Under the pieces are notes generated by a model, which made no database searches, had not been told where the DNA came from, and saw only the letters and a list, made by a program, of their open reading frames with translations. The position numbers and the translations under genes are program-made. From positions 186,216-210,215 of the forward strand of contig NZ_UWOT01000003.1 in assembly GCF_900604535.1 (NCBI RefSeq): a stretch of 24,000 nt of DNA. Reading direction: 5' to 3'. The first letter of the stretch is position 1; every line of letters starts with the position of its first letter. This stretch comes from Romboutsia sp. Marseille-P6047 (GTDB lineage: Bacteria > Bacillota > Clostridia > Peptostreptococcales > Peptostreptococcaceae). Below, one piece after another: positions 384 to 21,490 of this stretch.

Positions 384-397
384 TATATAATATTTTT

Positions 398-3123: not shown

Positions 3124-3150
3124 CTTGTTAATAAGGAAGGGAGTGGTATA

Positions 3151-5716: not shown

Positions 5717-5742
5717 ATTAAATAAATTGTTTTACATATAAT

Positions 5743-5770
5743 AAGGATTCTTGATATAGAGTCCTTTTTT
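5743..5770 (+). terminator. Rho-independent terminator closing the three-gene cassette
   Basis: aaggattc (5743-5750) pairs with gagtcctt (5759-5766), with one G-U. T6 follows at 5765-5770. Confidence 0.7.
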
Positions 5771-6506
5771 ATTACAACTATCAGAACTATAAATATCAGA
5801 ACACAATTACAATTAAATTTAAAGAAAATAAAAAGGTTAAATAAGGAATCGATTAGATATAATGAGATTCAATCTAATTTACAAAATAATAAATAGAGCA
5901 ACTTTTATAGAGATATTGAAAATATTATGATGTAAATGTAATAATTGTTTATTATTATGTTGGCCGATTGCTAAAGAGTGCATCTATTTTGATTTATAAT
6001 GTATCCTTTTTATATATTAATAAGAATATGCAAAACGATGAATAAGAATGATATTTACATAAATATTCAGATCAGAGACTTGATGTTTCAATATTATATA
6101 AATTTTACTTAGTATCATTTAGCTAGTTAATAATTATAAAGTTTATATTTGTTAGAAAATAAGAGTGGAAATAATATAGTATACATGTGTGTTATAAGAT
6201 AAAAAATAAACTTCTTAATATAATAGAATGAGAATGATACCAAGATAGATTTTAATATTTAACGTATAAAAAGTTGTAAAGCATAAATTGGATTATAAGG
6301 CACTCGCATTATATTAGTAATGTATTTATACCTTGTAATGCTTAAAATGGCATATAAAAGATATAACACAAAATAACACAATATTAACACAACTAATATG
6401 AAAAATAATAGAAAGTGCAAATTTTACATTAGCATATTGTATTAGCAAAAGTATTGATATAACTAAGTTTGATTGAATGTAGAAAAATATTAAAATTATA
6501 ATTATA

Positions 6507-6540
6507 GACTCCCCTCGTCTCCACCATTAAAATCCACGAA
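6507..6540 (+). repeat. tmRNA (ssrA) 3'-end fragment plus conserved flank (att-site remnant), copy A
   Basis: gactcccctcgtctccacca (6507-6526) reads as T-loop end, T-stem 3' strand, acceptor 3' strand CGTCTCC and ACCA of a Firmicute-type tmRNA. It is followed by ttaaaatccacgaa (6527-6540), a flank shared with copies B and C. No tmRNA 5' part (GGGGACG..., tag ORF) lies upstream. Confidence 0.65.
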
Positions 6541-6543
6541 AAG

Positions 6544-6570
6544 TCATACTAAATTTAGTATGATTTTTTT
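6544..6570 (+). terminator. Rho-independent terminator immediately after ssrA-like copy A
   Basis: tcatacta (6544-6551), loop aatt, tagtatga (6556-6563), then T7 (6564-6570). Confidence 0.75.
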
Positions 6571-6735
6571 GTATGAAAGAATTATATATTTATTAAAAAA
6601 ATGTTAACTCTATTATAACTAAGTTAAAAGTATATAAACTAAAAAAAAATATGCTAGTATGTTAAATAGGCTATGTTAAACTATTTGTTCAACATAGTCT
6701 ATTAAAAAAATAAATTTAGTAGAGGTAATTAAGTT

Positions 6736-7461
6736 ATGATAAAGAATTTTGCACATCGTGGATTTAGTGGTAAGTATCCAGAAAATACTCTTTTAGCATT
6801 ACAAAAAGCGATAGAAATAGGTAGTGATGGCATTGAATTTGATGTTCAGTTAACAAAAGACGGACAAGTTGTAATTATACATGATGAAACTATAGACCGT
6901 ACTTCTGACGGAACTGGATATGTATGTGATTATACTTATGATGAACTAATAAAATATGATTTTTCAGGACGTTATATGGGGAAAGTTGAAAAACAAAAAC
7001 TACCTCTTTTAAAAGACTACTTTGAAATGGTTAAAGACACTAACATTATTTCAAATATAGAATTAAAAAATAGCATTCTTGATTATAAAGATATAGAACA
7101 AAAAGTGTATGGATTAATAGTGGAATATGGTTTAAAAGATAAAGTTATTATTTCATCTTTCAATCATGAAAGTATAATTAGAATGAAAAAAATTGATGAA
7201 AGTATTGTATGTGGTTTTCTTGTAGATTGTACTATGTTAGATGCACCAATGTATATCAAAAAATATAATGTTGAGTGCTTCCATCCTTCAGGATATAGCT
7301 TAACAAAAGAAAAGGTAGAAGCTCTACAAAATCAAGGTATATTGGTTAATGTATGGTTAGGAAGTCATAACATGGATTACAAAGAACTAATAGATATGGG
7401 AATAGATATACTAATATCAGATAATCCAGATCAAGTAAAAGAAATTATAAGCAACTTATAG
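6736..7461 (+). CDS. glpQ: Glycerophosphodiester phosphodiesterase (GDPD family)
   Basis: 241 aa. The N-terminus FAHRGFSGKYPENTLLALQKAIEIGSDGIEFDVQLTKDGQVVIIHDETIDRTSDGTG is the classic GDPD signature (HRG...PENT...E.D...T.DG..V..HD). Confidence 0.85.
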   Translation: MIKNFAHRGFSGKYPENTLLALQKAIEIGSDGIEFDVQLTKDGQVVIIHDETIDRTSDGTGYVCDYTYDELIKYDFSGRYMGKVEKQKLPLLKDYFEMVKDTNIISNIELKNSILDYKDIEQKVYGLIVEYGLKDKVIISSFNHESIIRMKKIDESIVCGFLVDCTMLDAPMYIKKYNVECFHPSGYSLTKEKVEALQNQGILVNVWLGSHNMDYKELIDMGIDILISDNPDQVKEIISNL

Positions 7462-7469
7462 GAGGGGAT

Positions 7470-8288
7470 ATGAAAATATTAGACAACCATGTGCACACTA
7501 GTTTTTCAAGTGATGCAAAGGATTCTATGGAAACTGTAATAAAAATAGCTATAAAAAAGGGGTTAAACTATTTAACTATAACAGATCATATAGAAAATCA
7601 TATTACAGGAGAATGGATAGACTACAATGACTATATACCTGTATTTAATCATTATAAAGAAAAGTATAAAGGTGAGATAGAGTTATTGCTGGGTATAGAA
7701 GTTGGATATGAAAGTGATAGACACGAAGGTCTTGAAAAAATAGTAAAATCTTATCCTTTTGACTTTGTAATTTGTTCTACTCATTGTATAGACGGTAAAA
7801 AAATACATGATAGGAGCTACTTTGAGGGAAAAAGCAAAAAAGAAGCTTATGATAGATACTTTGAGTATATGAGAGACTGTACTAAAAAATTTAAAGAATT
7901 TAATATATATGGTCATCTTGATTACATCATAAGATATGGGACTTATGAAAATAATGAGATATGTTTTGAAGAGTATAAGCCAATAATAGATGAGATATTA
8001 ATTAATATAATAAATAATGGTAGTGGGATAGAGCTTAATACCTCAGGCTATAGATATGGATTAGATAGCACTCATCCAAATATTAAATTTATAAAAAGAT
8101 ATAAGGAGCTAGGGGGAACTATCATTACTTTAGGTTCAGATTCCCACAGGGCTAAGGATTTATGTGCTGATTTTGATAAAGCTTGTGAAATTTTAGTAAG
8201 TTGTGGATTTGAACATGTATGTATATTCAAAAATAGAAAACCTAAATTTATTAAAATAGAAGAAAAAGATAAAAGTAATATTGCTTAG
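7470..8288 (+). CDS. PHP-domain phosphatase (histidinol-phosphatase HisJ-like family)
   Basis: 272 aa. MKILDNHVHTSFSSDA at the N-terminus, with later TDH, GHLDY and GSDSH motifs matching the PHP metal-binding histidine/aspartate pattern. The RBS GGAGGGG at 7461-7467 sits 9 nt after the glpQ stop. Confidence 0.75.
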   Translation: MKILDNHVHTSFSSDAKDSMETVIKIAIKKGLNYLTITDHIENHITGEWIDYNDYIPVFNHYKEKYKGEIELLLGIEVGYESDRHEGLEKIVKSYPFDFVICSTHCIDGKKIHDRSYFEGKSKKEAYDRYFEYMRDCTKKFKEFNIYGHLDYIIRYGTYENNEICFEEYKPIIDEILINIINNGSGIELNTSGYRYGLDSTHPNIKFIKRYKELGGTIITLGSDSHRAKDLCADFDKACEILVSCGFEHVCIFKNRKPKFIKIEEKDKSNIA

Positions 8289-8293
8289 ATAAG

Positions 8294-8325
8294 GCTGTAT
8301 CAAATTTATTTGGTATAGCTTTTTT
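8294..8325 (+). terminator. Rho-independent terminator after the glpQ-PHP pair
   Basis: gctgtatcaaa (8294-8304) pairs with tttggtatagc (8309-8319), with two G-U pairs. T6 follows (8320-8325). Confidence 0.6.
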
Positions 8326-8545
8326 CCTATTGAGAAAATTATATTGTCTTACTTATATAAAAATTACTATTTTTTGGTTAAATTAAATTTAATAAATTTA
8401 ATAAACACTTAATTAAGTTAACTATGTATTAACTACTACTTAATAATCAGTTAACAAATACACTATAAAATATAATTAAGTTGAGTAAATGAAACAAAAG
8501 GACAAGTTAAGGGAAATAAAATATTAGAATGAAATGGGAGTTAAT

Positions 8546-9613
8546 ATGGCAAAGATAATTTTAGAAAATATTAAGAAAAGTTATAGCAAAAAAAATACTG
8601 TAATAGAAAACTTAAATTTAGAAATAGAAGATGGTTCATTTACAGTATTAGTAGGTCCATCAGGATGCGGGAAATCTACAACTTTAAGAATGATAGCAGG
8701 TCTAGAAGATATTACAGATGGAAATCTATTTATAGGTGATAGGGATGTAACTAAGGTAGATGCAGGACAAAGGGGGATATCAATGGTTTTCCAAAATTAT
8801 GCTTTATATCCTCACATGAGTGTAAAGGAAAATATAGAATTTGGATTAAAAAATAATAAAGTAAAAAAAGAAGAGAGAGAGAAGCTCATAGCAGAAGTTT
8901 CTTCAGTAGTAGGATTAGATGAATATTTAGAAAGAAAACCATCTGACTTATCAGGAGGTCAAAGACAAAGAGTAGCTTTAGCAAGGGCTATGGTAAAAAC
9001 ACCTAAGGTATTTTTAATGGACGAGCCTTTATCAAACTTAGATGCAAAACTAAGAAATCAAATGAGAAGTGAGCTTATCCAACTTCATAACAAGTTAAAG
9101 TCAACATTTGTATATGTTACTCATGATCAAGTCGAAGCAATGTCTATGGCAGATAAGATAGTAATAATGAATAAGGGTGAGATAATACAAATAGATGCAC
9201 CAAAAGAAATTTATCAAAATCCTAAAAATATATTTGTTGCTCAATTTATAGGAAGTCCAGCTATGAATATACTAGATATGAATGTATGCCACGAAAAATA
9301 TGGATTTAGGCCAGAAAAAATTAAGTTAGAAGCAGATGATAATTTTGATGGAATAGTTTTAAACGGAACAATACTTACAAAGGAAATTTTAGGGTCAGAA
9401 GTGCTTTATTGTGTAAACGTACAAGGTAAAGATATAATGATAAAAACTGAAACTGATACTTTAAACTTTGATGAAAAAGTACAGTTATTCGTAAATAAAT
9501 CGGATTTATATTATTTTGATACAAATGGAAATAGAATCGAAAATGAAAAACAAATACAGGGGTTATTTGAATTAATAAATGATAAGGAGAGTTTAAATGA
9601 AAAAGCAATATAA
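8546..9613 (+). CDS. ABC transporter ATP-binding protein, MalK/UgpC/MsmK type with C-terminal regulatory domain
   Basis: Walker A GPSGCGKST, Q-loop, signature LSGGQRQR, Walker B FLMDEPLSNLD and H-loop VTHD. The ORF opens at 8534, but GGAG at 8537-8540 favours the ATG at 8546 (MAKIILENI). Confidence 0.85.
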   Translation: MAKIILENIKKSYSKKNTVIENLNLEIEDGSFTVLVGPSGCGKSTTLRMIAGLEDITDGNLFIGDRDVTKVDAGQRGISMVFQNYALYPHMSVKENIEFGLKNNKVKKEEREKLIAEVSSVVGLDEYLERKPSDLSGGQRQRVALARAMVKTPKVFLMDEPLSNLDAKLRNQMRSELIQLHNKLKSTFVYVTHDQVEAMSMADKIVIMNKGEIIQIDAPKEIYQNPKNIFVAQFIGSPAMNILDMNVCHEKYGFRPEKIKLEADDNFDGIVLNGTILTKEILGSEVLYCVNVQGKDIMIKTETDTLNFDEKVQLFVNKSDLYYFDTNGNRIENEKQIQGLFELINDKESLNEKAI

Positions 9614-10463
9614 ATCTTATCTATATATAATGCCTGCTTTAATAGGAATACTTGTATTTGTAATATATCCAATATTGTACACAATATACTTAAGTTTTCA
9701 ATCGGGAAGTTTGATGAGTCCAACTTTTACATTTGCAGGGTTAGATAACTATAAGGATCTTTTAAAAGATGGAGACTTTATAATAACTTTGAAAAATACA
9801 GCAATCTATACAGTAGCAATGGTTACTATTTCTATTTCATTAGCACTAGTATTTGCAGTATGGTTAAACAAACAAAGTTTTATGCACAAGCTTACACAGA
9901 CTATAATATTTACACCTCATATAGTTTCTCTTGTATCAATAGGTGTACTATTTATGTGGCTTATGAATCCTGATTATGGATTTTTAAACTTTGTACTAGA
10001 GAAGATAGGTCTTGAACCATCTACATGGTTATCTAGTGATAAAACAGCTTTATTCTCAATAATACTAGTTGGAATATGGAAAACAGTAGGATACAATACT
10101 TTAGTGTTTGTAGCAGGTCTTCAAGGTATACCGAAGTATATTTATGAAGCTGCAAACTTAGATAATAGTGGACCAATAAAGACCTTCTTTAAAGTTACAT
10201 TACCTCTACTATCACCAACAATATTTTTCCTATTAATAACAACGACAACAGCGTCATTCCAAGTGTTTGACTTAATAAATGTTATGACAAAGGGAGGACC
10301 AATAAACTCTACAAATATGTTAGTTTACTACATTTATGAAGCAGGGTTTAGATATTACGATATAGGGATAGCATCGGCTGCAAGTGTGTTCTTAATAGTA
10401 TTAGTAGGTATTTTGACTTTTGCACACTTTAAACTATTATCTAATAAGGTTCATTACCAATAA
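9597..10463 (+). CDS. ABC sugar/glycerophosphodiester transporter permease (UgpA/MalF-like)
   Basis: 288 aa multi-TM protein with an EAA-loop-like EAANLDNSGPIKTFFKVTLP. The RBS AAGGAGAG is at 9584-9591. The start overlaps the ATPase gene end. Confidence 0.8.
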   Translation: MKKQYKSYLYIMPALIGILVFVIYPILYTIYLSFQSGSLMSPTFTFAGLDNYKDLLKDGDFIITLKNTAIYTVAMVTISISLALVFAVWLNKQSFMHKLTQTIIFTPHIVSLVSIGVLFMWLMNPDYGFLNFVLEKIGLEPSTWLSSDKTALFSIILVGIWKTVGYNTLVFVAGLQGIPKYIYEAANLDNSGPIKTFFKVTLPLLSPTIFFLLITTTTASFQVFDLINVMTKGGPINSTNMLVYYIYEAGFRYYDIGIASAASVFLIVLVGILTFAHFKLLSNKVHYQ

Positions 10464-10483
10464 AATTAGTAGGAGGAAAGATC

Positions 10484-11368
10484 TTGGAACAATTACAACA
10501 ATCTAGCGCTTATAAAGAAAAAATAAATTTAAAAGAAAAACTATCGATTCTTAAAGTACCGTTAAAATGTTTGGAGTATGTGGTATTGGGTTTAATGATA
10601 ATGATATTTGTATTTCCTTTTATTTGGATGATATCAACATCATTAAAAACTACAGCTGAAGCAATACAAATACCACCAACAATAATACCTAATGAATTTA
10701 TCTTTGAAAACTATTTAAAGGCATGGAATTCAGGGCCATTCTTTAGATATTTAGGAAATAGTATATTTATTACTTCAGCAATACTAATTATGCAGTTTAT
10801 AATTATGGTTCCAGCTGCTTATGCTTTCTCAAAAATTAAATTTAAGGGAGAAAAAATATTATTTGGAATAGTGTTAGTCGGGCTAATGGTTCCACCACAA
10901 ATAACTTTTTTACCTGTGTATATTATGATGAGTAAACTTGGATTAATAAATTCATATGTACCATTAATACTTCCTTTCATGACATCATCATTTGGAATAT
11001 TTTTACTAAGACAAAACTTCATGCAAGTATCGGATGAAATAATTGAAGCAGCGAAATTAGATAATGCTTCAGATTTCAAAATAATGTGGAAGATTATGCT
11101 GCCTATAGCTAAACCAGCTATGATTACATTTGGGTTATTTAGTTTTATATATCATTGGAACAATTATTTCTGGCCATTAGTTATGAGTAATACTGATTTG
11201 GTTAGAACACTTCCTATAGGTGTTACTATGCTTAAGGAAATTGAAGGTATAACAAATTGGAATATAGTAATGGCAGGGAATGTAATGCTTACAGCACCAA
11301 TACTAATAATATATACATTCTTAAATGGTCAAATTAAAAAGGCGTTTGCATATTCAGGAATAAAATAA
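10484..11368 (+). CDS. ABC sugar/glycerophosphodiester transporter permease (UgpE/MalG-like)
   Basis: 294 aa multi-TM protein with the EAA loop EAAKLDNASDFKIMWKIMLP. A TTG start lies 7 nt after AGGAGG (10471-10476). Confidence 0.8.
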   Translation: MEQLQQSSAYKEKINLKEKLSILKVPLKCLEYVVLGLMIMIFVFPFIWMISTSLKTTAEAIQIPPTIIPNEFIFENYLKAWNSGPFFRYLGNSIFITSAILIMQFIIMVPAAYAFSKIKFKGEKILFGIVLVGLMVPPQITFLPVYIMMSKLGLINSYVPLILPFMTSSFGIFLLRQNFMQVSDEIIEAAKLDNASDFKIMWKIMLPIAKPAMITFGLFSFIYHWNNYFWPLVMSNTDLVRTLPIGVTMLKEIEGITNWNIVMAGNVMLTAPILIIYTFLNGQIKKAFAYSGIK

Positions 11369-11394
11369 TATTTTATTATAGGGGAGATTTAAAA

Positions 11395-12696
11395 ATGAAA
11401 TTAAAAAGAACGATATCGGGAACATTGGCTCTTACATTAATAGTAGGAACATTAACAGGATGCTCAACTAAAGGACAAGATACAGCAGTGGACTCAGTAA
11501 GTGATGGAAAGGTTCAAGTAGAATTTTGGAATGCTTTAACTGGTACAAATGAAGAAATCGTAAAGAGTTATGTAGATAAGTTTAATGCACAAAGTGAAGA
11601 TGTAGAAATAAAAATGGTATCTCAAGGAGATTATTGGGAGAATGGAACTAAATTACAAGCTGCAATAGCTGCTGGTAATCAACCAGACTTAACAATGCTT
11701 GAAGTAACTCAAGTTGCTCAATTTGCATCTGTTGGAGCATTAGCAGATTTAGAACAATATGTAAGCAAAGAAAAGATAGATGATTTTTTACCAGGGCTTA
11801 TGAGAGAATCGGAATATGATGGAAAGACTGTAGCAGTACCTTTAAACAGAAGCACTCCATTACTATATGTAAATAAAGAAATGTGTGAAGCTGCAGGACT
11901 TGATCCAGAAGGTTCAAAAAACTGGGATGAATTAAAAATGTATGCTGAAAAGTTAACAGACGAAGCGGACGGAGTAGTAGGTCTTGCAGTACCAATAGAT
12001 ATATGGTTCTTTGAATCATTAATATACCAACAAGGTGGAGAAATGATAGATGAAAACAACAAAGTTGCTTTCAATAATGAAATAGGTTTTAATGCTTTAG
12101 GATTATGGCAAGATATGATGAAAGAAGGAATAATGCAATTACCTCCAGGGGAAGGGTATGATGCATGGGATGCTGCAAAGGATGCATTCGTTAATGGAAA
12201 AGCAGGTATGACATTCCAATCTACAGCAAGTTTAGCAGGACTTATGGAGCAAGCTGAAGGTAAATTTACAGTAAATACAGCGTTCTTACCAGGGGATTCT
12301 CAATATGGAGTTCCAACTGGTGGAGCAAATGTTGTTATGATGGAAGGTTCATCTCAAGAAGAAAAAGAAGCTGCTGCTGAGTTCATAGAGTTTATGACTG
12401 ATGAAGAAAATGCAGTTCAATTCTCTATAGATACAGGATATATGCCAATAACTAACACTGCATTAAATAGTGAAACAATACAAAATTTATATAAAGAAAA
12501 GCCTCAATATTCAACTGCTGCTAAGCAATTAGAATATGCATCTCAAAGACCAGGTGTAGTAGGATACGTTGAAGCTACTGAAAAGTTAATGAACGAAATG
12601 AAAAAAGCTTTAATGGATTTAAATGTTGATGTTAAAGAAACAGTTGAAAAAGCAACTGCAATAATGCAACAAGTAGTAGACAAAAACAATAAATAG
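11395..12696 (+). CDS. Extracellular solute-binding lipoprotein of the ABC importer
   Basis: 433 aa. It has a signal peptide with the lipobox LTGC (cysteine before STKG). The sequence is typical of family-1 sugar/glycerophosphodiester binding proteins. The RBS GGGGAG is at 11381-11386. Confidence 0.8.
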   Translation: MKLKRTISGTLALTLIVGTLTGCSTKGQDTAVDSVSDGKVQVEFWNALTGTNEEIVKSYVDKFNAQSEDVEIKMVSQGDYWENGTKLQAAIAAGNQPDLTMLEVTQVAQFASVGALADLEQYVSKEKIDDFLPGLMRESEYDGKTVAVPLNRSTPLLYVNKEMCEAAGLDPEGSKNWDELKMYAEKLTDEADGVVGLAVPIDIWFFESLIYQQGGEMIDENNKVAFNNEIGFNALGLWQDMMKEGIMQLPPGEGYDAWDAAKDAFVNGKAGMTFQSTASLAGLMEQAEGKFTVNTAFLPGDSQYGVPTGGANVVMMEGSSQEEKEAAAEFIEFMTDEENAVQFSIDTGYMPITNTALNSETIQNLYKEKPQYSTAAKQLEYASQRPGVVGYVEATEKLMNEMKKALMDLNVDVKETVEKATAIMQQVVDKNNK

Positions 12697-12793
12697 TACA
12701 TCTTATCCTCTTAATTTAAAATATACAAAAGGTGATGTTATCATAATTATATATAAATATATAGTAAATTGAAAAGAGATTAATATGCATAAT

Positions 12794-12840
12794 CGTGGGT
12801 GTGATTACTGCGATTCGTTTCCACCATTCAAACCCTCGAA
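12794..12840 (+). repeat. Degenerate tmRNA (ssrA) 3'-end-like sequence plus conserved flank, copy B
   Basis: cgtgggtgtgattactgcgattcgtttccacca aligns to a T-arm plus acceptor 3' end (CGTGGGTTCGACTCCCAC-CGTCTCCACCA type) with substitutions. The flank ttcaaaccctcgaa follows. Confidence 0.55.
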
Positions 12841-12853
12841 AATGAGGATAAGG

Positions 12854-12886
12854 AACTACTAAACCTTATAGTTTAGTAGTTTTTTA
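12854..12886 (+). terminator. Rho-independent terminator after copy B (also terminates the ABC operon)
   Basis: aactactaaac (12854-12864), loop cttata, gtttagtagtt (12871-12881), then a T-run. Confidence 0.75.
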
Positions 12887-13045
12887 TTTTGCCTTTTACA
12901 AATATTTTATTAATATAAGCTGTAGTAAAATTTACGTCATTGGCATCTACTGATTGTAGTCCATGTGCAAAAGTTGAATAGTTCGACCCAAGTTTATTTA
13001 TAACAATAAACAAAAGTTTCAAATAGAGAAATTTCTATGATTACA

Positions 13046-13054
13046 TGATATAAT
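13046..13054 (+). promoter_or_regulatory. Possible extended -10 promoter element for the LacI-type regulator gene
   Basis: TGaTATAAT at 13046-13054, about 30 nt upstream of the start. No good -35 was seen. Confidence 0.35.
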
Positions 13055-13084
13055 GAATATAAAAAATAATAATGAGGTGATATT

Positions 13085-14077
13085 GTGGCGAATATGAATG
13101 ATGTAGCTAAAAGAGCCGGTGTATCAAGAGGTACAGTATCAAATTATATAAATAATGTAAAAATAAAAGAATCTTTAAGAATAAAAATAGAAGAAGCTAT
13201 AAAAGAACTGGGGTATATACCAAATATAGCTGCAAGAGAATTGAAAACAAATACAGCTAGTAATGTAGTATTCATAGTACCTACAGTATGGAATCCATTT
13301 TTCTCTGAACTTACATATTACTTGCAAATAGAATTGAAAAAAATAGGTAAAAAGATGTTATTATGTAATTCTCAAGACAATTACTTATCAGAAATAGAGT
13401 ATATTGAAATGGCAAAACAAAACAAAGTGTATGGCATTATATCTGTATCTTATAGTAATATCTTACCGCATTTGACTGAAAATTTACCATATGTTGCAAT
13501 AGAAAGGTATTATAATGAATCAATACCTTATGTAACTAGTGATAATATAAATGGAAGTAAACTTGCTGTAAATGAATTATATAAAAGAAAATGTAAAAAT
13601 TTATTACACATTACAAGAGAAGTAGAAAATAATAAAGCTTTAATGGATAGAAAGTTTGGTTTTGAAACTACATGTAAGGAATTAAATTTAAATTATAGTA
13701 TTTTTAATTGCCATTGCAAATCTAGTGAATTTAGAAAAGAAGTAAACAAGTTTATAAAAGAATCATATAGCAACAATAATAAATTTGATGGTATTTTTTG
13801 TGCTACAGATAGATATGCACAGTATGTTATTGAAGCTCTTGAAGAAATGGAAATAAGAATACCAGATGATGTTCAGATAATAGGATTTGATGGAGCTAAA
13901 AGTTATTCTAATGAACATCTAAAAATTTCTACTATGAAACAAAATATTGAAGGGCTTGCAATAGAAGCAGTTAACTTACTTCAATTAGTAGTAAATAAAA
14001 GTGAAACTATAAATAATAAAATATTACCAGTAAGTTTTTTAGAAATTGAAACTACAAAAAGAATAAATGAACAATAA
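13085..14077 (+). CDS. scrR: LacI-family transcriptional regulator (sucrose operon repressor type)
   Basis: 330 aa. The N-terminal HTH MNDVAKRAGVSRGTVSNYIN is followed by a periplasmic-binding-protein-like sugar-binding core. GTG at 13085 follows GAGGTGA (13073-13079); the ATG at 13094 is an alternative start. The gene sits immediately upstream of the sucrose PTS genes. Confidence 0.8.
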   Translation: MANMNDVAKRAGVSRGTVSNYINNVKIKESLRIKIEEAIKELGYIPNIAARELKTNTASNVVFIVPTVWNPFFSELTYYLQIELKKIGKKMLLCNSQDNYLSEIEYIEMAKQNKVYGIISVSYSNILPHLTENLPYVAIERYYNESIPYVTSDNINGSKLAVNELYKRKCKNLLHITREVENNKALMDRKFGFETTCKELNLNYSIFNCHCKSSEFRKEVNKFIKESYSNNNKFDGIFCATDRYAQYVIEALEEMEIRIPDDVQIIGFDGAKSYSNEHLKISTMKQNIEGLAIEAVNLLQLVVNKSETINNKILPVSFLEIETTKRINEQ

Positions 14078-14080
14078 TCT

Positions 14081-14115
14081 AAAATCATAGTTTTTCAGAA
14101 CTGTGATTTTTTTTT
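14081..14115 (+). terminator. Rho-independent terminator after scrR
   Basis: aaaatcatagtt (14081-14092) pairs with aactgtgatttt (14099-14110). The T-run extends to 14115. Confidence 0.7.
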
Positions 14116-14146
14116 AGAAAAATTTAAAAAAATGGCAAATGTTTTC

Positions 14147-14175
14147 TTGAAATGATTGGGAATTTATATTACAAT
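14147..14175 (+). promoter_or_regulatory. SigmaA-type promoter of the sucrose catabolic operon
   Basis: TTGAAA (14147-14152), a 17-nt spacer, then TACAAT (14170-14175). Confidence 0.6.
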
Positions 14176-14187
14176 AAAAATATAAAA

Positions 14188-14201
14188 TTGGAACGTTCCA
14201 A
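14188..14201. promoter_or_regulatory. Perfect 14-bp palindromic LacI-family/cre-like operator
   Basis: ttggaacgttccaa lies 13 nt after the -10 element and 4 nt before the RBS of scrA. It fits the TGNAANCGNTTNCA-type operator pattern of LacI/CcpA-family proteins. Confidence 0.7.
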
Positions 14202-14218
14202 AAAAGAGGGGAGAAAAA

Positions 14219-15658
14219 ATGAATTATAAAAACATTGCTAAAGAAGTGATTAAAAATGTTGGAGGAAAAGAAAACATAGCAAGTGCAGCACACTGCGTAA
14301 CAAGATTAAGATTAGTATTAAAAGATACAACAAAGTATGATAAAGAAATACTCGAAAATATTGAAGGGGTTAAAGGTGTATTTTTTAATAGTGGTCAATT
14401 ACAAGTTATATTTGGAACAAAAACTGTAGATCTTGTACATGCAGCTTTGATGGAGATATTAGGAATAAAAGAATCATCTTTAGCTGATGTGAAAAATGAA
14501 GCTAATAAAGATCAAAATAAAATTAAAAAACTGTTTAAAGCTTTTTCAGATATTTTTGTAGGTTTAATACCAGCAATAGTTGGATGTGCAATGATTTTAG
14601 GTTTAAGATCTTTATTTCTTACTGAAGGTCTATTTGGATTAGAAGGTACATTAGCTGATACATATAAATGGGCAAATGATACTGCATCATTTTTAAATAT
14701 TATAGCTACAGGGTTGAATTTCTTACCAGTACTTATAGCTTACTCAGCAACTAAAAGATTTGGTGGAAATCCAGCACTAGGTATAATAATAGGATTAATA
14801 TTAGTTCATCCTGACTTAGGAAATAGATTTGAATATTTACAAGGTACAGCTACTAATGTAGAATACTGGAACTTATTAGGAGTAAATGTACCGGCAGTAG
14901 CATTCCAAGGGGGAATATTCCCAGCTATACTGACATCTTTATTTTTAGCTACATTTGAGAAATTTATCACAAAACATGTTCCGCAAGTACTTTCATTCGT
15001 ACTTGTACCTACATTAACTATAATAGTATCATCTTTAGCTTTATTCATAGTATTTGGACCATTAGGAGATGCTATGGCATCAGCTATTGGATATGTGTGT
15101 GAGATATTATATATGAAAACGGGAATTATAGGTGCTTTTGCATTTGCAGCACTTCTTCAACCATTAGTTATAACAGGAACACATCATGCAATAGGAAGTA
15201 TAGAAGCTCAATTAATTGCACAAACAGGATTTAATTATATACAACCGTTATGGTCAGTATCAATTATAGCTCAAGGTGGAGCTTGTATAGGAATGTTCTT
15301 ATTAGCAAGAAAAAAATCAAAATTAAGAGAAGTATCAGTATCTAGTTTTGTACCTACATTAGTGGGAGTTTCAGAACCTGCAATATTTGCAGTAAACTTA
15401 AAAAATTCTATAGTTCCATTTGTATGTGCAGCATTAGGAGCAGGTTTAGGTGGAATATATATGAAATTACTAGATGTAAAAGCACTAGGTTTTGGATTAA
15501 CAGGAATACCGGGTATAACAATAGTAAATCCACCAGTAATGTTACATTATCTAGTAGGAAACTTAATAGCATTTATTGCTCCTATAGTATTCTTAGTTAT
15601 ATATCATAAAGTTAAAGGAGTACAAGGTATAGAAAAGTCAAAAGTAAGTGTTGCATAA
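14219..15658 (+). CDS. scrA: PTS sucrose-type EIIBC component (no EIIA domain)
   Basis: 479 aa. The N-terminal EIIB carries the phospho-cysteine motif NIASAAHCVTRLRLVLKD. A ~370 aa polytopic EIIC follows, with the GITEPA-like VGVSEPAIF. Confidence 0.85.
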   Translation: MNYKNIAKEVIKNVGGKENIASAAHCVTRLRLVLKDTTKYDKEILENIEGVKGVFFNSGQLQVIFGTKTVDLVHAALMEILGIKESSLADVKNEANKDQNKIKKLFKAFSDIFVGLIPAIVGCAMILGLRSLFLTEGLFGLEGTLADTYKWANDTASFLNIIATGLNFLPVLIAYSATKRFGGNPALGIIIGLILVHPDLGNRFEYLQGTATNVEYWNLLGVNVPAVAFQGGIFPAILTSLFLATFEKFITKHVPQVLSFVLVPTLTIIVSSLALFIVFGPLGDAMASAIGYVCEILYMKTGIIGAFAFAALLQPLVITGTHHAIGSIEAQLIAQTGFNYIQPLWSVSIIAQGGACIGMFLLARKKSKLREVSVSSFVPTLVGVSEPAIFAVNLKNSIVPFVCAALGAGLGGIYMKLLDVKALGFGLTGIPGITIVNPPVMLHYLVGNLIAFIAPIVFLVIYHKVKGVQGIEKSKVSVA

Positions 15659-15720
15659 ATGATGCAAACGATAAAATAGTTTTATAAATATAATAAAAAA
15701 ATAGAAACTTAGGAGACATT

Positions 15721-17154
15721 ATGAAATTTAAAAAAGTAGAAAAATACACATATGTAGAAGATAAACATAAACCTTATTTAAAAGAACTAAGTGAGTTTGT
15801 TAGTAAAAGTGAATACTTACCAAAGTATCACATTTATCCTAAAAGTGGATTAATGAATGACCCAAATGGATTGGCATATTTTAATGGAGAGTACAATTTC
15901 TTTTATCAGTGGTTCCCATTTGAACCTACACATGGTATGAAACATTGGGGATACTTAACATCAAAAGATTTATTAACTTGGGAAGAGAAAGATATAGCAT
16001 TGACACCAGATATGGAGTATGAAAAAAATGGATGTTATTCTGGAAACTCTATAGAAAAAGGTGGATTATTATATTTATTTTACACAGCAAATTATAAAAC
16101 TGAAAATGATAGAATACCAAAACAAGCTGTAGCGATTATGGACAAAGGTGGAAATATAGAAAAGTATATAAATAATCCAATTATAGATGGAGCACCAGAT
16201 AATATGACTGGAGATATTAGAGATCCTTTTGTTTTTAGAAAAGGTGAAAAGTACTATATGCTATTAGGGGCAAAAAGCAAAAAAGAAAAAGGTGCATTAT
16301 TACTATATACAAGTGAAGATTTATTAATATGGAACTATATGGGAGAAATAAATCTTCCAATAGATACAGGATATATGTTAGAATGCCCAAGTTTTATAGA
16401 AGTTGAAGGAAAAGATGTAATAATACTTTCGCCTATGGGTCTTGAAAAAGAAGAATTAAAGTATCAAAATCAATTTTCAACAGTATATTTAGTAGGAAAA
16501 TTAGATATAGAAAATATGAAATTTGACCTAGAGTATATGGATGAAGTAGATAATGGATTTGATTTTTATGCATCGCAAGCATTTTATGGAAAAGATAATA
16601 AGCCTATGATGGTATCGTGGTTTGGATGTGGAGAACAAGATCTTCCAACTGATAAAGAAATGTGGAAGCATGGTTTAACTATGCCTCATACTCTTAGATT
16701 AGTCGAAAATAGATTGTGTAATTTTGTATCAGAGGAATTAAATGATCTATTTAATGATAAGAATGAATTTGACAGCAATATAATAAAAACAAAATCTAAT
16801 TCCTATCATATTAAATTTAATATGCGTAAAGAAGATGAAAATAAATGGGTTAGATTTGGTTATGAAAATGATTATTGGGAGTTAAACTTTGATTTTGATA
16901 AAAATGTAATTCAAGTAGATAGAAGTAATCTAAAATTAAAAGTAGACATAAATAATGGATTGAAAAGATGTGCAGAAGGCTTAAATAAAGAAGAATATAA
17001 AGTTGATATTTATGTAGATAACAGCTTTGTAGAGGTATTTATCAATGAAGGAATGAAGTCATTTGTATTTAGATGCTTTAATCTAAACAATGAAGAACAT
17101 AATATACAATTCACACATGCAAATAAAGGAAGCATAAATTACTACAATAAATAA
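15721..17154 (+). CDS. scrB: Sucrose-6-phosphate hydrolase (GH32)
   Basis: 477 aa. GH32 catalytic motifs are present: LMNDPNGL, FYQWFP, RDPFV and MLECP. Confidence 0.9.
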   Translation: MKFKKVEKYTYVEDKHKPYLKELSEFVSKSEYLPKYHIYPKSGLMNDPNGLAYFNGEYNFFYQWFPFEPTHGMKHWGYLTSKDLLTWEEKDIALTPDMEYEKNGCYSGNSIEKGGLLYLFYTANYKTENDRIPKQAVAIMDKGGNIEKYINNPIIDGAPDNMTGDIRDPFVFRKGEKYYMLLGAKSKKEKGALLLYTSEDLLIWNYMGEINLPIDTGYMLECPSFIEVEGKDVIILSPMGLEKEELKYQNQFSTVYLVGKLDIENMKFDLEYMDEVDNGFDFYASQAFYGKDNKPMMVSWFGCGEQDLPTDKEMWKHGLTMPHTLRLVENRLCNFVSEELNDLFNDKNEFDSNIIKTKSNSYHIKFNMRKEDENKWVRFGYENDYWELNFDFDKNVIQVDRSNLKLKVDINNGLKRCAEGLNKEEYKVDIYVDNSFVEVFINEGMKSFVFRCFNLNNEEHNIQFTHANKGSINYYNK

Positions 17155-17155
17155 A

Positions 17156-17180
17156 AAAAGGCTAGTTTATCTAGCCTTTT
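17156..17180 (+). terminator. Intra-operon hairpin (weak terminator or RNA stabiliser) between scrB and the next kinase gene
   Basis: aaaaggctag (17156-17165), loop tttat, ctagcctttt (17171-17180). The U-tract is only the 4 T inside the stem end. Confidence 0.4.
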
Positions 17181-17207
17181 AACTATAAGAAAAGGAAAGA
17201 TATAAAT

Positions 17208-18140
17208 ATGATATACACAGTAACTCTTAATCCATCTATAGACTACGTAGTAGAAACATATAAATTGAAAATAGGGGAAGTAAACAGAGCTAATAATGAA
17301 GAACTATATCCAGGTGGAAAAGGTATAAATGTTTCACTTATGCTTAACGAACTGAAAGAAGAAAATACAGCACTAGGATTTTTAGGTGGATTTACAGGAG
17401 AATATATAGAAAATACTTTGGTTTCTAGAGGCGTAAATACGGAATTTATAAAATTACAAGAAGGCTTGAGTAGAATTAACTTAAAAATAAAGGATGAAGA
17501 TGAAACAGAAATTAATGGTAAAGGACCTCGTATAAGTGAGGATGAGTTACGATTATTATATAAAAAAATTGAAAAATTAAAAGATGAAGATATATTAGTT
17601 TTATGTGGAAGTATACCACAATCACTAAGTAATACATTGTATGAAGATATAGTTAGTATGGTGGCTAAAAAGGATGTAAAAGTTATAGTAGATGCAACTA
17701 GCAATCTTTTACTTAATACATTGAAATATAATCCATTTCTTATAAAACCAAATATCCATGAATTAGAGGAAATATTTAAAACTAAAATAGGCTCTATAGA
17801 TAAGACTATTTTTTATGCAACAAAGCTTAAAGATATGGGAGCTGAAAATGTAATAATATCTATGGGAAAAGATGGAGCATTATTAGTTGATGAAAAAGGA
17901 GAAATATACTTAAGTAATGCGCCTAAGGGTAACGTTGTAAATACAGTTGGATCAGGAGATTCTATGGTTGCAGGTTTCATTAGTGGATATTTAAGGACTA
18001 AAGATTATAAAGAAGCATTAAAACTAGGAGCATCTTGTGGAAGTGCTACAGCATTTTCAAGTGGAATAAGTGGAAAAAAATTAATAGATATTTTGAAAAA
18101 TGAAATTGAAATTAAAGAAATTTGTAAAATAAATATGTAA
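17208..18140 (+). CDS. fruK: PfkB-family sugar-phosphate kinase, 1-phosphofructokinase/tagatose-6-phosphate kinase type
   Basis: 310 aa. The N-terminus MIYTVTLNPSIDY and the GGKGINV and GSGDSMVAGF motifs are typical of FruK/LacC. Confidence 0.75.
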   Translation: MIYTVTLNPSIDYVVETYKLKIGEVNRANNEELYPGGKGINVSLMLNELKEENTALGFLGGFTGEYIENTLVSRGVNTEFIKLQEGLSRINLKIKDEDETEINGKGPRISEDELRLLYKKIEKLKDEDILVLCGSIPQSLSNTLYEDIVSMVAKKDVKVIVDATSNLLLNTLKYNPFLIKPNIHELEEIFKTKIGSIDKTIFYATKLKDMGAENVIISMGKDGALLVDEKGEIYLSNAPKGNVVNTVGSGDSMVAGFISGYLRTKDYKEALKLGASCGSATAFSSGISGKKLIDILKNEIEIKEICKINM

Positions 18141-18150
18141 GGTGGCAAAT

Positions 18151-19119
18151 ATGAAAAAAGTAATAAGTATAGGAGAAGCTTTAATTGATTTTATACCTAA
18201 TCAAAAAAGTTGTGAACTAAAGGATGTAATAGGTTTTGAAAGAGTAGCGGGAGGAGCGCCTGCTAATGTTAGTGCTGTAGTATCAAAACTTGGTGGAAAA
18301 TCAAATTTCATATCAAAGCTAGGTAGGGATGCTTTTGGAGATCATATAATAGAGGTTTTAAAAGAGGCTAATGTAAATACAGATTATGTATTAAGAACAG
18401 ATAAAGCTAATACAGGATTAGCTTTTGTTTCTTTAAAAGAAGATGGAAATCGTGATTTTTCATTCTATAGAAATCCAAGTGCAGATATGTTACTAGAAGA
18501 AAACGAAGTAAAAAAGGAATGGTTTAAAGATTGTCATAGCTTACATTTTTGTTCAGTAGATTTAATAGAGTGTCCAATGAAGTATGCACATAAAAAAGCT
18601 ATAGAATTTGCACTAGAAAATAAAAGTATAATAAGCTTTGATCCAAATGTAAGGTTACCTCTATGGGATAGCGAAGAGTCATGTAGAGATGCAATAATAG
18701 AGTTTTTACATTTAGCTCATATAGTTAAAATATCTGATGAAGAATTAGAATTTATAACGGGGTATGATACTATGGATGAGGCTAAAGAAGTATTGTTTAA
18801 AGGTAATGTGAAGCTAGTTTTATTTACAAAAGGAAAAGGTGGAGCTGAGGCATATACTAAGGATAAAATTGTTAAAATACCTGGGAATGTTGTGGATGTA
18901 GTTGATACAACAGGAGCAGGGGATTCATTTATTGGTTCATTTTTATTTAAACTATTACAAGATGATATAAATATGGAAAGATTTGATAGTATTAGTGCTG
19001 AAATGTTAAAAGAATACTTAGTATTTTCAAATTGTTATGCCGCCTACAGTACAACTAAAAAAGGTGCGATTGGATCATATGCTACATTAGATGAGATAAT
19101 AAAGTATATGAATCAATAA
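18151..19119 (+). CDS. scrK: Fructokinase (PfkB/ribokinase family)
   Basis: The ORF opens at GTG 18142. AAGGTGG (18139-18145) favours the ATG at 18151. ISIGEALIDFIP, GGAPANV and DTTGAGDSFIG are typical of bacterial fructokinases. Confidence 0.8.
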   Translation: MKKVISIGEALIDFIPNQKSCELKDVIGFERVAGGAPANVSAVVSKLGGKSNFISKLGRDAFGDHIIEVLKEANVNTDYVLRTDKANTGLAFVSLKEDGNRDFSFYRNPSADMLLEENEVKKEWFKDCHSLHFCSVDLIECPMKYAHKKAIEFALENKSIISFDPNVRLPLWDSEESCRDAIIEFLHLAHIVKISDEELEFITGYDTMDEAKEVLFKGNVKLVLFTKGKGGAEAYTKDKIVKIPGNVVDVVDTTGAGDSFIGSFLFKLLQDDINMERFDSISAEMLKEYLVFSNCYAAYSTTKKGAIGSYATLDEIIKYMNQ

Positions 19120-19142
19120 ATTAGTATATAAGTATGAATCTA

Positions 19143-19186
19143 GGGTATTACTCCTATGATTCATCTTCACCATTAAAATCCACGAA
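19143..19186 (+). repeat. Degenerate tmRNA (ssrA) 3'-end-like sequence plus conserved flank, copy C
   Basis: gggtattactcctatgattcatcttcacca followed by ttaaaatccacgaa. The flank is identical to copy A, and the tmRNA-like part is the most diverged of the three. Confidence 0.5.
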
Positions 19187-19217
19187 TACCTATATCCTTT
19201 TGGATATAGGTATTTTT
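19187..19217 (+). terminator. Rho-independent terminator after copy C (also terminates the sucrose operon)
   Basis: tacctatatcc (19187-19197), loop tttt, ggatataggta (19202-19212), then T5. Confidence 0.8.
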
Positions 19218-19329
19218 ATATTTTAAATATAAATACTATTGATAAAACTATCAAAAAAGTATTTACTTAAAGTATAAGAATTCACATAAAAATTACAAAA
19301 ATACAATAAAAGTGTTTCAAGGAGGGGTT

Positions 19330-21414: not shown

Positions 21415-21450
21415 CCTACCAGTTGGGGCATATATATTGATACTGAATAT

Positions 21451-21490
21451 AAGGGATGTTATCTTTTAATAGCAAAAGATAAGGTCCCTT
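21451..21490 (+). terminator. Long hairpin after the kinase gene (probable terminator)
   Basis: aagggatgttatctttt (21451-21467) pairs with aaaagataaggtccctt (21474-21490), with a 2-nt internal mismatch. It is followed by tcttagttt (weak U-tract). Confidence 0.5.

Follow-up and report, generated by a model that had tools for sequence, protein, structure and literature searches.

Probable tandem accretion of horizontally acquired modules at the 3' end of ssrA in a Romboutsia genome

We analysed a 24,000-nucleotide stretch from the genome of a Romboutsia gut bacterium, called the window in the following. Horizontally acquired units have very probably accumulated in tandem behind the 3' end of ssrA, the tmRNA gene, and the window would cover the two-thirds of this array distal to the gene, with hybrid att boundaries and trans-mobilised cassettes. 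The evidence supports tandem accretion at ssrA, and the array in this genome reads rnr, smpB, ssrA, island 0, copy A, the GDPD cassette, copy B, the sucrose cassette, copy C and the chromosomal backbone. Accessory-gene stacking behind ssrA is a kind of arrangement already known, for example from the Dehalococcoides ssrA islands and from cis-mobilizable elements (CIMEs). The features are as follows.

1..6506, + strand: island 0, the right-hand ~6.5 kb of a ~17 kb integrative element (Pfam; absent in L072)
6507..6526, + strand: copy A core, 20-nt duplicate of the ssrA 3' end, GACTCCCCTCGTCTCCACCA, from the T-loop to CCA (identical to tmRNA ends)
6527..6572, + strand: trailer TTAAAATCCACGAA and terminator A (hairpin 6541-6566 and T-run; RNAfold -9.9 kcal/mol; same sequence behind four left arms)
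6736..12696, + strand: module 1 cargo, glycerophosphodiester-type uptake (Pfam; in L071-L076)
12790..12842, + strand: copy B, type-2 repeat (nhmmer 59 bits, E=1e-16)
12850..12891, + strand: terminator B, P' arm of the sucrose module (hairpin 12850-12885; RNAfold -15.2 kcal/mol)
13085..19119, + strand: module 2 cargo, sucrose PTS (Pfam; replaced in L074)
19137..19187, + strand: copy C, type-2 repeat (nhmmer 47 bits, E=8e-13)
19184..19222, + strand: terminator C and start of the conserved chromosomal backbone (hairpin 19184-19215; RNAfold -18.8 kcal/mol; terminator scan)
19223..24000, + strand: backbone flank (Pfam; gene calls in L095)

Repeat copies, terminators and the tmRNA gene

A search of the window for TCYYCACCATTMAAAYCCWCGAA with up to three mismatches gave exactly three matches, all on the + strand, with cores at 6518-6540 (copy A), 12818-12840 (copy B, with one mismatch to the earlier note's own pattern) and 19164-19186 (copy C), so that successive copies are spaced by 6300 and 6346 nt. 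None of 100 dinucleotide-preserving shuffles contained any core match (chance expectation 0), which confirms the three ssrA-3'-like cores described previously. A hairpin with a T-run lies 3' of every copy, and the three hairpins show no sequence relationship; RNAfold and sequence comparison thus agree with the previous claim of a separate, unrelated terminator behind each copy. A simple consensus terminator scan listed solely the third hairpin, because the stems of terminators A and B are too A+T-rich for the scan rule. The terminator differences between the copies are not incidental, as trailer and terminator together are the P' arm of the right-hand module.

At six Peptostreptococcaceae loci, the motif corresponds to the last 5 nt (CACCA) of the ARAGORN-called tmRNA gene plus the next 14 nt, and real tmRNA ends with a matching trailer occur in Terrisporobacter, Paeniclostridium and the window's own species. 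The ssrA 3' end proposed as the origin of the repeats is borne out by window positions 6507-6540, which match the end of ssrA and the trailer behind it in a sister strain without any difference. ARAGORN and Rfam found no tmRNA or tRNA gene inside the window; the real ssrA of the same genome lies ~10.5 kb left of the window start. The data support an origin of the repeats as fragments of the ssrA 3' end that site-specific integration left behind. A longer 5' similarity to tmRNA, suggested earlier for copies B and C, holds weakly: their left arms resemble GGGT..GATTC, the 5' half and loop of the T-arm, only when a 3-nt indel is allowed, and a profile of such arms aligns to the real ssrA T-arm of three Terrisporobacter loci with a gain of ~5 bits.

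Copy A is the right end of island 0, an integrase-bearing and intact-looking element. In the sister strain GCA_900066495.1 (L072), smpB and ssrA are directly followed by the GDPD module, island 0 is absent, and homology to the window begins at 6507, inside the T-loop. Because L072 joins ssrA to the GDPD module at this position, copy A can be assigned as attR of the ~17 kb element, and its 20-nt core, identical to the ARAGORN tmRNA gene ends in L072 (9439-9791) and in the window's own genome (L091), is the identity block. Within the window, island 0 encodes a truncated Bax1-I, a sigma70_r2-like protein, an M78/IrrE peptidase, a 494-aa protein and a PycTM-like protein (Pfam), the last followed by a ~0.8 kb non-coding P arm at the right end. 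Leftwards in the same genome (L077, L091) lie DnaB, Phg_2220_C, HTH_17, HTH regulators and a 394-aa tyrosine integrase (PF00589/PF14659), which adjoins ssrA. The post-CCA trailer of island 0 itself begins with ATAATTGC and has its own terminator; both its left arm and its trailer differ from those of the type-2 sites described below. No conjugation genes were seen in island 0, which has the look of a phage satellite or an IME. The earlier note had overlooked island 0 filling 1-6506 and the functional ssrA ~17 kb upstream of copy A.

Metabolic modules and their hybrid junctions

Segment 6527..6572 serves the GDPD module as its left (P') arm. In L072, this trailer and terminator A stand directly 3' of ssrA, where the terminator would end the ssrA transcript. 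Module 1 comprises a GDPD phosphodiesterase, a PHP-domain protein, an ABC ATPase, two permeases and a solute-binding protein, and module 2 a LacI-type regulator, PTS EIIBC, a GH32 sucrose-6-phosphate hydrolase-type enzyme and two PfkB kinases (Pfam). Copy B, between them, consists of a left arm AATCGTGGGTGTGATTACTGCGATTC from module 1, the core GTTTCCACCA and a trailer TTCAAACCCTCGAAAA from module 2; terminator B closely resembles the terminator behind ssrA and many repeat copies in Terrisporobacter (compared with L062, L035 and L026). Copy C is composed of the left arm AATCTAGGGTATTACTCCTATGATTC from module 2, the core ATCTTCACCA and the trailer TTAAAATCCACGAAT. Terminator C is likely the original ssrA trailer and terminator; together with its flank it stands behind a type-1 arm in L086 and L100 and behind an unrelated type-2 cassette in L099. 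The flank 19223..24000, with 77% DNA identity to that of L099 and L100, carries a LytTR-type two-component system (receiver, LytTR, GHKL kinase) and an FtsX/ABC gene leaving the window. Pfam and phmmer found no recombinase in module 1 or 2, in keeping with the earlier description of both as integrase-less. The cassettes show no foreign-composition signal, with base composition and GC3 equal to the surroundings.

The right part of copy A occurs behind four left arms, namely native ssrA in L072, island 0 in the window, a type-2 arm in L075 and another island in L074. For copy B, one left arm is combined with two different right parts, and for copy C, one right part with three different left arms. 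In L074, an alpha-glucoside PTS module (EIIA, PRD antiterminator, EIICB, GH4) takes the place of the sucrose module with the breakpoint inside copy B: the left arm is as in copy B, but trailer, terminator and downstream module are others, and this alternative module has 84% identity to a module of a Terrisporobacter MAG (L046) that likewise lies to the right of a type-2 repeat. T. vanillatitrophus and P. hominis share, at 96.8% identity, a metallo-beta-lactamase cassette that has its own trailer and terminator, a cassette of the same type in a Clostridium MAG has 80-82% identity, and the left arm differs at each occurrence. Arms and modules thus segregate independently between strains and genera. 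The empty site of island 0, the replacement in L074 and the varying neighbours of terminator C likewise uphold the modules as independent units in the strain comparison that the earlier note had proposed. Neither the GDPD nor the sucrose cassette itself was seen as an excision product or a circle, or with an empty site, in the compared loci; the one change observed was the replacement of the sucrose module.

The chronology proposed for the array fared less well. The "age gradient" amounts to 0, 1 and 2 substitutions in 12 nt only and is not shown; the G-to-A change, one of the two in copy C, is the Terrisporobacter ssrA allele and may be a donor signature instead of decay. A strict order with the newest unit next to ssrA does not match the GDPD module, proximal and present in 6/6 related contigs (L071-L076), and the distal sucrose module, which varies. 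Insertion always beside the functional ssrA is indistinguishable from integration at internal att sites.

Type-2 repeats and the origin of the array

Copies B and C belong to a family of ~52-nt dyad-symmetric repeats that we name "type 2", found in Romboutsia, Terrisporobacter, Paeniclostridium, Clostridioides mangenotii and Clostridium spp. (24 full-length copies, mean column identity 87%). Same-orientation arrays with a spacing of 1.5-3.4 kb occur in L056 (four copies), L028, L046, L003 and L040, and P. hominis has one copy 3.2 kb downstream of ssrA. The scanned cassettes between repeats, about 1.45-6.7 kb long, contain no recombinase by Pfam, and phmmer against all ORFs of the compared loci likewise revealed none in them. 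No recombinase could be tied to type-2 sites; besides the island-0 integrase, the only one seen near a type-2 copy is a frameshifted large serine recombinase (L085).

Each boundary in the array would be a hybrid att site, with the P arm on its left derived from the left-hand unit, exchange at the short core common with the ssrA acceptor strand (..TCGTCTCCACCA; core ..TCTCCACCATT..), and the post-CCA trailer and rho-independent terminator supplied as P' arm by the right-hand unit. The unit adjoining ssrA would rebuild the gene end and provide its terminator, which would explain the different terminator of each copy. We infer that the cassettes entered, and can be swapped, via site-specific recombination at these sites, presumably through an ssrA-specific recombinase acting in trans; the cassettes would therefore behave like CIMEs. 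Island 0, which carries the tyrosine integrase, a repressor, an Xis-like HTH protein, replication genes and defence-like cargo, provides with its type of integrase the only recombinase candidate found nearby.

It is possible, albeit doubtful, that the repeats are inert att scars and the modules remnants of ICEs, IMEs or prophages with deleted integrase and transfer genes, the strains differing by homologous recombination after transformation or transduction and not by any site-specific step today. Homologous recombination via ssrA, the ~50-nt repeats and the conserved flanks would yield the same static picture, and such scars are in line with the lack of a recombinase in or adjoining the cassettes, the lack of an integrase in L072 from rnr to the sucrose module, the B and C cores substituted relative to ssrA, the weakening of copies with distance in some arrays (39, 22 and 21 bits in L028) and no detectable repeat 3' of the metallo-beta-lactamase gene in L012 and L049. 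However, ~17 inter-repeat intervals of 1.45-6.7 kb contain zero remnants of mobility genes, the non-ssrA left arm is highly conserved in at least five genera despite unrelated cargo, which is unexpected for neutral scars, and the breakpoints fall within a stretch of ~12-25 nt, short for RecA-dependent exchange.

An improbable alternative is that type 2 is a REP- or MITE-like dispersed repeat, or an operon-end transcript element such as a 3' stabiliser or tRNA-like decoy, unrelated to integration and no more than similar to the tmRNA end. The repeat is indeed an imperfect palindrome (87% of cells pair, versus 23-50% in slid controls), it always lies between stop codon and terminator on the coding strand, and copies are widely separated in two genomes: those of T. 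vanillatitrophus lie on opposite strands at a distance of 1 Mb, and those of MGYG-HGUT-00102 on different large contigs, so that not every copy need sit in an ssrA-proximal array. Nevertheless, neither possible helix shows covariation (compensatory cells do not exceed those in shuffles and are zero for the outer helix), Rfam gives no match to the repeat, and its right half is ssrA sequence itself, following the host allele (CGTCTCC vs CATCTCC). Wherever ssrA is in view, moreover, the copies lie downstream of it in the same orientation (in the window's genome, in L049, and on the contig where L020 and L062 are separated by 20 kb), and their halves re-assort exactly like attP x attB products. 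We give hardly any credence to the repeats being 5' regulatory leaders (antiterminator or riboswitch plus terminator) duplicated with related regulation: each copy with its terminator does lie 100-200 nt upstream of the next module's first gene, and the left arm of copy B presumably has a superficial likeness to PTS RAT sequences, but the cargo behind the repeat unit is unrelated (MBL, TIR protein, nitroreductase, methyltransferase, type I R-M, two-component systems), copy A is a plain ssrA end, no covarying alternative pairing or Rfam match was found, and the downstream modules have their own regulators (LacI-type with sucrose, PRD antiterminator in L074).

Comparison with known systems

Accretion at ssrA as favoured here has a close counterpart in Dehalococcoides, where several tandem islands lie downstream of the single-copy ssrA and every repeat is immediately preceded by an extra conserved motif; some of these islands have no integration module and are proposed to be cis-mobilizable through accretion, and the integrase is the ~540-aa serine recombinase DsiB of a six-gene module by attL in 16 islands (McMurdie et al., 2011, PMC3146451). 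Tandem units downstream of ssrA, a conserved motif upstream of the repeats and integrase-less members are common to both. Here, in contrast, the only complete element has a tyrosine integrase, not a DsiB-type enzyme, the inspected type-2 units lack a recombinase except for the frameshifted one in L085, units are smaller (1.5-6.7 kb), the conserved flank is a ~25-nt arm making the site dyad-symmetric, and the right arm carries a terminator.

According to the review PMC5704250 (on work by Pavlovic, 2004, and Bellanger, 2011), CIMEs are decayed ICEs or IMEs by definition, flanked by attL and attR but devoid of genes for integration and transfer; their tandem partner is a functional integrative element targeting the same gene end, and cis-mobilization by an ICE was shown experimentally. 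The units here are likewise att-flanked, free of mobility genes and in tandem with an integrative element at the same gene end. Unlike CIMEs, they have no visible decay remnants, their mobility is putative, and the neighbouring element resembles a phage satellite or IME rather than a conjugative one.

Among the tDNA and tmRNA-gene islands of Islander/TIGER, ssrA is the most enriched tDNA target, and every member of a tandem must possess an integrase itself to be admitted by Islander (Hudson et al., 2015, PMC4383910). Island 0 is an exact fit, with an intact tmRNA gene at one end, the displaced 3' fragment at the other, an internal tyrosine integrase and an identity block from T-stem/loop to 3' end; under the own-integrase rule, the GDPD and sucrose units would be overlooked or fused. 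Such islands are reportedly also covered by Williams (2003) in "Traffic at the tmRNA gene".

As an analogy only, integron cassette arrays also combine small, recombinase-less, genus-crossing cargo units in the same orientation with imperfectly palindromic recombination sites between them. Unlike integrons, however, the array described here has no intI/attI/Pc platform, its type-2 site lacks structural covariation, its cassettes bring their own regulators, promoters and terminators, and its anchor is the tmRNA gene.

Copy A and an integrative element at ssrA

The 23-nt core of the ssrA-3'-like repeats was found three times in the window and in none of 100 shuffled sequences, bearing out the three repeats described in the earlier note. 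Copies A, B and C are spaced by 6300 nt (A-B) and 6346 nt (B-C), and behind each stands a hairpin with a T-run; the fold energies are -9.9 (A), -15.2 (B) and -18.8 (C) kcal/mol. Only the third hairpin passes a consensus terminator scan with a G+C rule. The three hairpins share no sequence relation, in line with the different terminators noted before. ARAGORN detected no tRNA or tmRNA gene in the window, and no Rfam family reached its gathering score; the copies consist of 12-20 nt of the gene and a trailer (the sequence after CCA) and are not complete tmRNA.

Repeats and units in the window
1-6506: right part of island 0, an integrative element
6507-6526, + strand: 20-nt ssrA fragment of copy A, type 1 (an ssrA-end copy)
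6518-6540, + strand: core of copy A
Between copies A and B: glycerophosphodiester (GDPD) module
12818-12840, + strand: core of copy B, type 2 (a dyad-symmetric repeat of about 52 nt)
Between copies B and C: sucrose PTS module
19164-19186, + strand: core of copy C, type 2

The real ssrA of the window genome lies about 10.5 kb to the left of the window start (locus L091, 14678-15030). The corresponding locus was recovered from related assemblies via exact-protein look-ups. L071 (SRR29119085) represents the window's own genome, with zero substitutions. L072 (GCA_900066495.1) has the order secG, rnr, smpB, ssrA (9439-9791), GDPD module, the last two directly adjoining. It is homologous to the window from 6507, within the T-loop, onward, with 99.7% identity, and its sequence after the ssrA CCA is identical to the window trailer and terminator A. 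Leftward in the window genome (L077, L091) reside DnaB, a Phg_2220_C replication protein, an Xis-like HTH_17 protein, two HTH regulators, and a tyrosine integrase of 394 aa (PF00589, E=1.7e-32, and PF14659; L091 11374-12558). Three small genes separate the integrase from ssrA, beyond which smpB and rnr follow (L091). Because the site is empty in L072 and the integrase and ssrA are found leftward, copy A is the attR of island 0, an integrative element of ~17.06 kb. Its attL comprises ssrA followed by the island's own trailer (CCACCA followed by ATAATTGC...) and own terminator, and the identity block between ssrA and island 0 is 20 nt long. As Islander defines islands, island 0 has an intact ssrA at one end, a same-orientation displaced fragment (6507-6526), an internal tyrosine integrase, and an unoccupied site in a close relative (L072). 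An IMG/VR search with the island-0 DnaB returned no relatives. The repressor of island 0 has a 100%-identical counterpart that NCBI assigns to Romboutsia sp. Marseille-P6047, which identifies the organism.

The right end of island 0 (window 3151-5706; L077 10001-12556) encodes an M78/IrrE peptidase, a 494-aa protein without annotation, and a protein with a PycTM domain, which look like a defence-type cargo trio. In other island copies, the interval between ssrA and the integrase holds either a UvrD-like helicase and DUF2290 or HTH, M78 and DUF3368 genes.

When L071 and L095, from the short-read assembly of its own genome, are taken as reference, the window shows no substitutions and seven deletions of 1-2 nt (1490, 5460, 5700, 5787, 20184, 20370, and 20697), which leave the repeats untouched. 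They shorten a sigma70_r2-like gene from 358 to 337 aa and a PycTM-like gene from 185 to 111 aa and split a GHKL kinase (417 aa) into fragments; they probably stem from indel errors, or else from frameshifts that arose very recently. Two independent short-read assemblies (contig ends of L071/L096/L103) both stop at window ~18740, in the second PfkB gene some 600 nt from its start, and the next contig, L095, begins at window 18729. This break near copy C is probably an assembly problem, not a biological junction.

Hybrid junctions and exchangeable modules

We aligned 13 junctions on CACCA. The right part of copy A (trailer, terminator A, and GDPD module) is preceded by four alternative left arms, an arm being the flank half of a repeat.

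Left arms before the right part of copy A
L072: native ssrA
Window: island-0 arm
L074: type-1 arm of another island
L075: type-2 arm

The left arm of copy B leads in the window to a Terrisporobacter-like trailer, terminator B, and the sucrose module, and in L074 to another trailer, another terminator, and a module of EIIA, PRD antiterminator, EIICB, and GH4. The right part of copy C consists of terminator C and a LytTR two-component flank that is 77% identical among the relatives; it is preceded by a type-1 arm in L086 and L100 and by an unrelated type-2 cassette in L099. Because arms and right parts re-pair among these junctions, the left arm can be assigned to the left unit, and the trailer and terminator to the right unit, the switch falling within about ..TCTCCACCATT... 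Such re-pairing is the pattern expected of attP x attB products (P-O-P', P-O-B'). Each arriving unit would supply the terminator that is to serve ssrA, which would account for every copy having its own. Terminator C and its flank are the conserved backbone. The comparative junctions thus support tandem accretion at ssrA, in which the modules can be exchanged independently of one another.

The age gradient proposed in the earlier note found no support. The cores of A, B, and C do differ from ssrA at 0, 1, and 2 of 12 positions, but the G-to-A change in copy C is the Terrisporobacter ssrA allele and the trailer of copy B is likewise Terrisporobacter-like, so that the differences may mark donors instead of age. 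The supposed rule of insertion always beside ssrA is likewise not shown. The proximal GDPD unit is present in 6/6 related contigs and the distal unit is variable, in a strain comparison that for the right end of the array leaves out L072, L073, and L074. Since the distal and not the proximal unit varies, a simple series with the newest element next to ssrA fits poorly unless internal sites recombine or whole segments are exchanged. Base composition and GC3 reveal no contrast between modules and flanks (all GC3 0.11-0.21), a comparison of no informative value, the likely donors being just as A+T-rich. Exact-protein look-ups for window 497-1510 and 2324-2977 and for the receiver, PfkB, GH32, and SBP proteins gave nothing or same-sample matches only; the exact matches of the latter four were confined to contigs of SRR29119085 or SRR29119121.

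The type-2 repeat family and its cassettes

A search with the motif CACCATTMAAAYCCWCGAA in one genome per species identified 70 loci. Beyond Firmicutes, the matches have unrelated sequence surroundings and the look of chance hits. The motif is found in Terrisporobacter, Paeniclostridium, Clostridioides mangenotii, Clostridium spp., and other Peptostreptococcaceae, where it falls into three classes. The first consists of true tmRNA ends (L021, L026, L035, L049, L062, and L063) with an ARAGORN gene encoding the tag ANDNYALAA, the motif covering the final 5 nt of the tmRNA gene and 14 nt beyond. In the type-1 class, identity with ssrA begins in the T-loop (..GACTCCCCTCGTCTCCACCA). The type-2 class has a recurrent non-ssrA left arm, AATYGTGGGTATGATTCTTGTGAATC, joined to a G or A followed by TCTCCACCA. 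The similarity to ssrA that copies B and C were thought to extend further 5' is reduced to a weak likeness of the type-2 left arm to the 5' half of the T-arm and the loop; the type-2 profile reaches into GGGTTCGATTC of the real ssrA in three loci, with a gain of ~5 bits.

The 24 full-length type-2 copies have a mean column identity of 87% and form an imperfect palindrome, of which the right arm is the ssrA acceptor strand. Pairing holds in 87% of the cells, as compared with 23-50% when the partner is slid. Compensatory changes were not above shuffles in the palindrome, and there were none in a second possible helix with the trailer or outer inverted repeat (AATCGTGGGT / ATCCACGA). With real dyad symmetry but no covariation, neither the palindrome nor the outer repeat was accepted as evidence for a structured RNA. 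Because the pairing comes without compensatory changes, the symmetry looks more like a conserved site for protein binding than like an RNA or DNA fold under selection. A PTS RAT or riboswitch leader was dropped, as the unit of repeat and terminator also precedes unrelated cargo.

A profile made from 16 type-2 copies detected same-orientation arrays.

Arrays and copies of the type-2 family
L056: array of four copies, 1.8-2.3 kb apart
L028: array of four to five copies
L046: array of three copies
L003, L040: pairs, 1.45-1.5 kb apart
L049 (P. hominis): one copy, 3.2 kb downstream of ssrA
T. mayombei: one copy, 20 kb downstream of ssrA, same strand

The cargo between copies is ordinary accessory genes. 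It includes an MFS transporter, nitroreductase, methyltransferase, SNF symporter, CWB2 wall proteins, and GH1, together with a metallo-beta-lactamase (MBL) fold, two-component systems, a TIR protein, an OLD-like ATPase, and a Cap4 nuclease. T. vanillatitrophus and P. hominis share the MBL cassette at 96.8% identity, and a Clostridium MAG has it at 80-82%; it travels with its own trailer and terminator, and its left arm differs in each genome. The module that L074 has in place of the sucrose unit finds a counterpart of 84% identity in a Terrisporobacter MAG. Different genera thus have cassettes in common, along with the cassettes' own trailers and terminators.

The MBL cassettes of L049 (3245-3700) and L056 (4560-5100) contain an extra conserved segment between terminator and gene (…taggctccaagcaaagactgtaaaaca…ttggagcc…), which is missing from L012, the third genome, and may reflect either a minor insertion or a hairpin with a regulatory role. 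An insertion sequence encoding a 510-aa DDE transposase (PF13751, PF05598, PF01609) resides directly behind the trailer (…CGAAAACGAGGAAAAG followed immediately by AGGGGTTGTCTC…) at three repeat copies, one of them a genuine ssrA (L021, after ssrA; L038 3097-4629; L065 5215-6747), suggesting that it targets the trailer sequence of the repeat or its terminator. In T. vanillatitrophus, the copies lie far apart, at 1.796 Mb on the + strand (L012) and 2.81 Mb on the - strand (L040), and the copies L065 and L068 of MGYG-HGUT-00102 lie on different large contigs. Some arrays or single copies may therefore be located away from ssrA, possibly by rearrangement or secondary sites.

Recombinases and comparison with known systems

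Pfam searches of all 11 genes and phmmer with tyrosine and serine recombinase queries found no integrase in the GDPD and sucrose modules, as the earlier note had stated. Pfam likewise identified only ordinary cargo in the scanned genes flanking type-2 copies elsewhere, and the phmmer queries against 945 ORF segments of the examined loci gave none within type-2 units. The only exceptions in these searches were the island-0 integrases and a frameshifted large serine recombinase in L085. The action of a recombinase on type-2 sites and the present-day mobility of the cassettes are inferred.

The L085 recombinase, in a genome other than the window's, lies at 5206-6769 (L101 10001-11564), 3.5 kb to the left of an attR-side type-2 repeat, and adjoins a Cap4 nuclease and a 562-aa protein. 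It has no relatives in the examined loci, and IMG/VR returned its own contig alone.

It is conceivable, though on balance doubtful, that Peptostreptococcaceae and some Clostridium carry an ssrA-anchored, integron-like cassette platform in active use. Its site would be a dyad-symmetric stretch of ~52 nt, composed of the type-2 arm, the ssrA acceptor-strand core, and the trailer, followed by a cassette-borne terminator. The cassettes would be compact single-gene or single-operon units for metabolism, resistance-like functions, or defence, none with a recombinase, and an ssrA-specific recombinase acting in trans would insert, shuffle, and exchange them between genera. If so, the array would be a working gene-capture system and not a graveyard of decayed islands.

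Independently of that reading, the array explains how a gut anaerobe keeps sucrose and glycerophosphodiester use as swappable units behind an essential RNA gene, and why this region differs between near-identical strains. As an HMM, the type-2 site offers a simple sequence handle for finding, in Romboutsia, Terrisporobacter, Paeniclostridium, and relatives, integrase-less accessory cassettes that would escape finders demanding an integrase per unit. The cargo of some includes defence genes (TIR, Cap4, OLD-like ATPase) or genes with a metallo-beta-lactamase fold, and one cassette is nearly identical across genera. If a recombinase for type-2 sites exists, the array would rank as the Gram-positive equivalent of a cassette-capture system and could become a tool for ssrA-targeted insertion.

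It is textbook knowledge that elements integrate into the 3' end of tmRNA genes and that a displaced fragment then marks their far end; among tDNA targets, ssrA is the most enriched (PMC4383910). In Dehalococcoides, tandem ssrA islands are bounded by 20-bp repeats with an extra conserved upstream motif, and several units without integration modules were read as cis-mobilizable through accretion (PMC3146451). The array described here similarly has tandem units downstream of ssrA bounded by direct repeats of the ssrA 3' end. Unlike the Dehalococcoides islands, it is without a DsiB-type large serine recombinase module by attL, and island 0 has a tyrosine integrase instead. The GDPD and sucrose modules also resemble CIMEs, a concept that, with accretion, originates in streptococcal ICEs (PMC5704250): they are flanked by attL/attR-type sites (A/B and B/C) with hybrid arms and are devoid of integration and transfer genes. 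As for traces of a decayed ancestor, no pseudogene remnants were seen, and the intergenic gaps beside the repeats measure only 45-200 nt, which speaks neither for nor against such an origin. Whereas an integron is expected to have an intI/attI/Pc platform, promoterless cassettes, and attC hairpins, L072 has no integrase at the array head, the cassettes have their own regulators and terminators, and the palindrome is without covariation. We found no description of such an array in Peptostreptococcaceae in the open-access literature; tandem ssrA accretion is already known, and its occurrence in Romboutsia-like bacteria is new. Four features depart from the known ssrA arrays and make the integron-like platform conceivable, namely the conserved dyad-symmetric type-2 arm, a terminator borne by the right arm, units of small size, and the near-total absence of recombinases.
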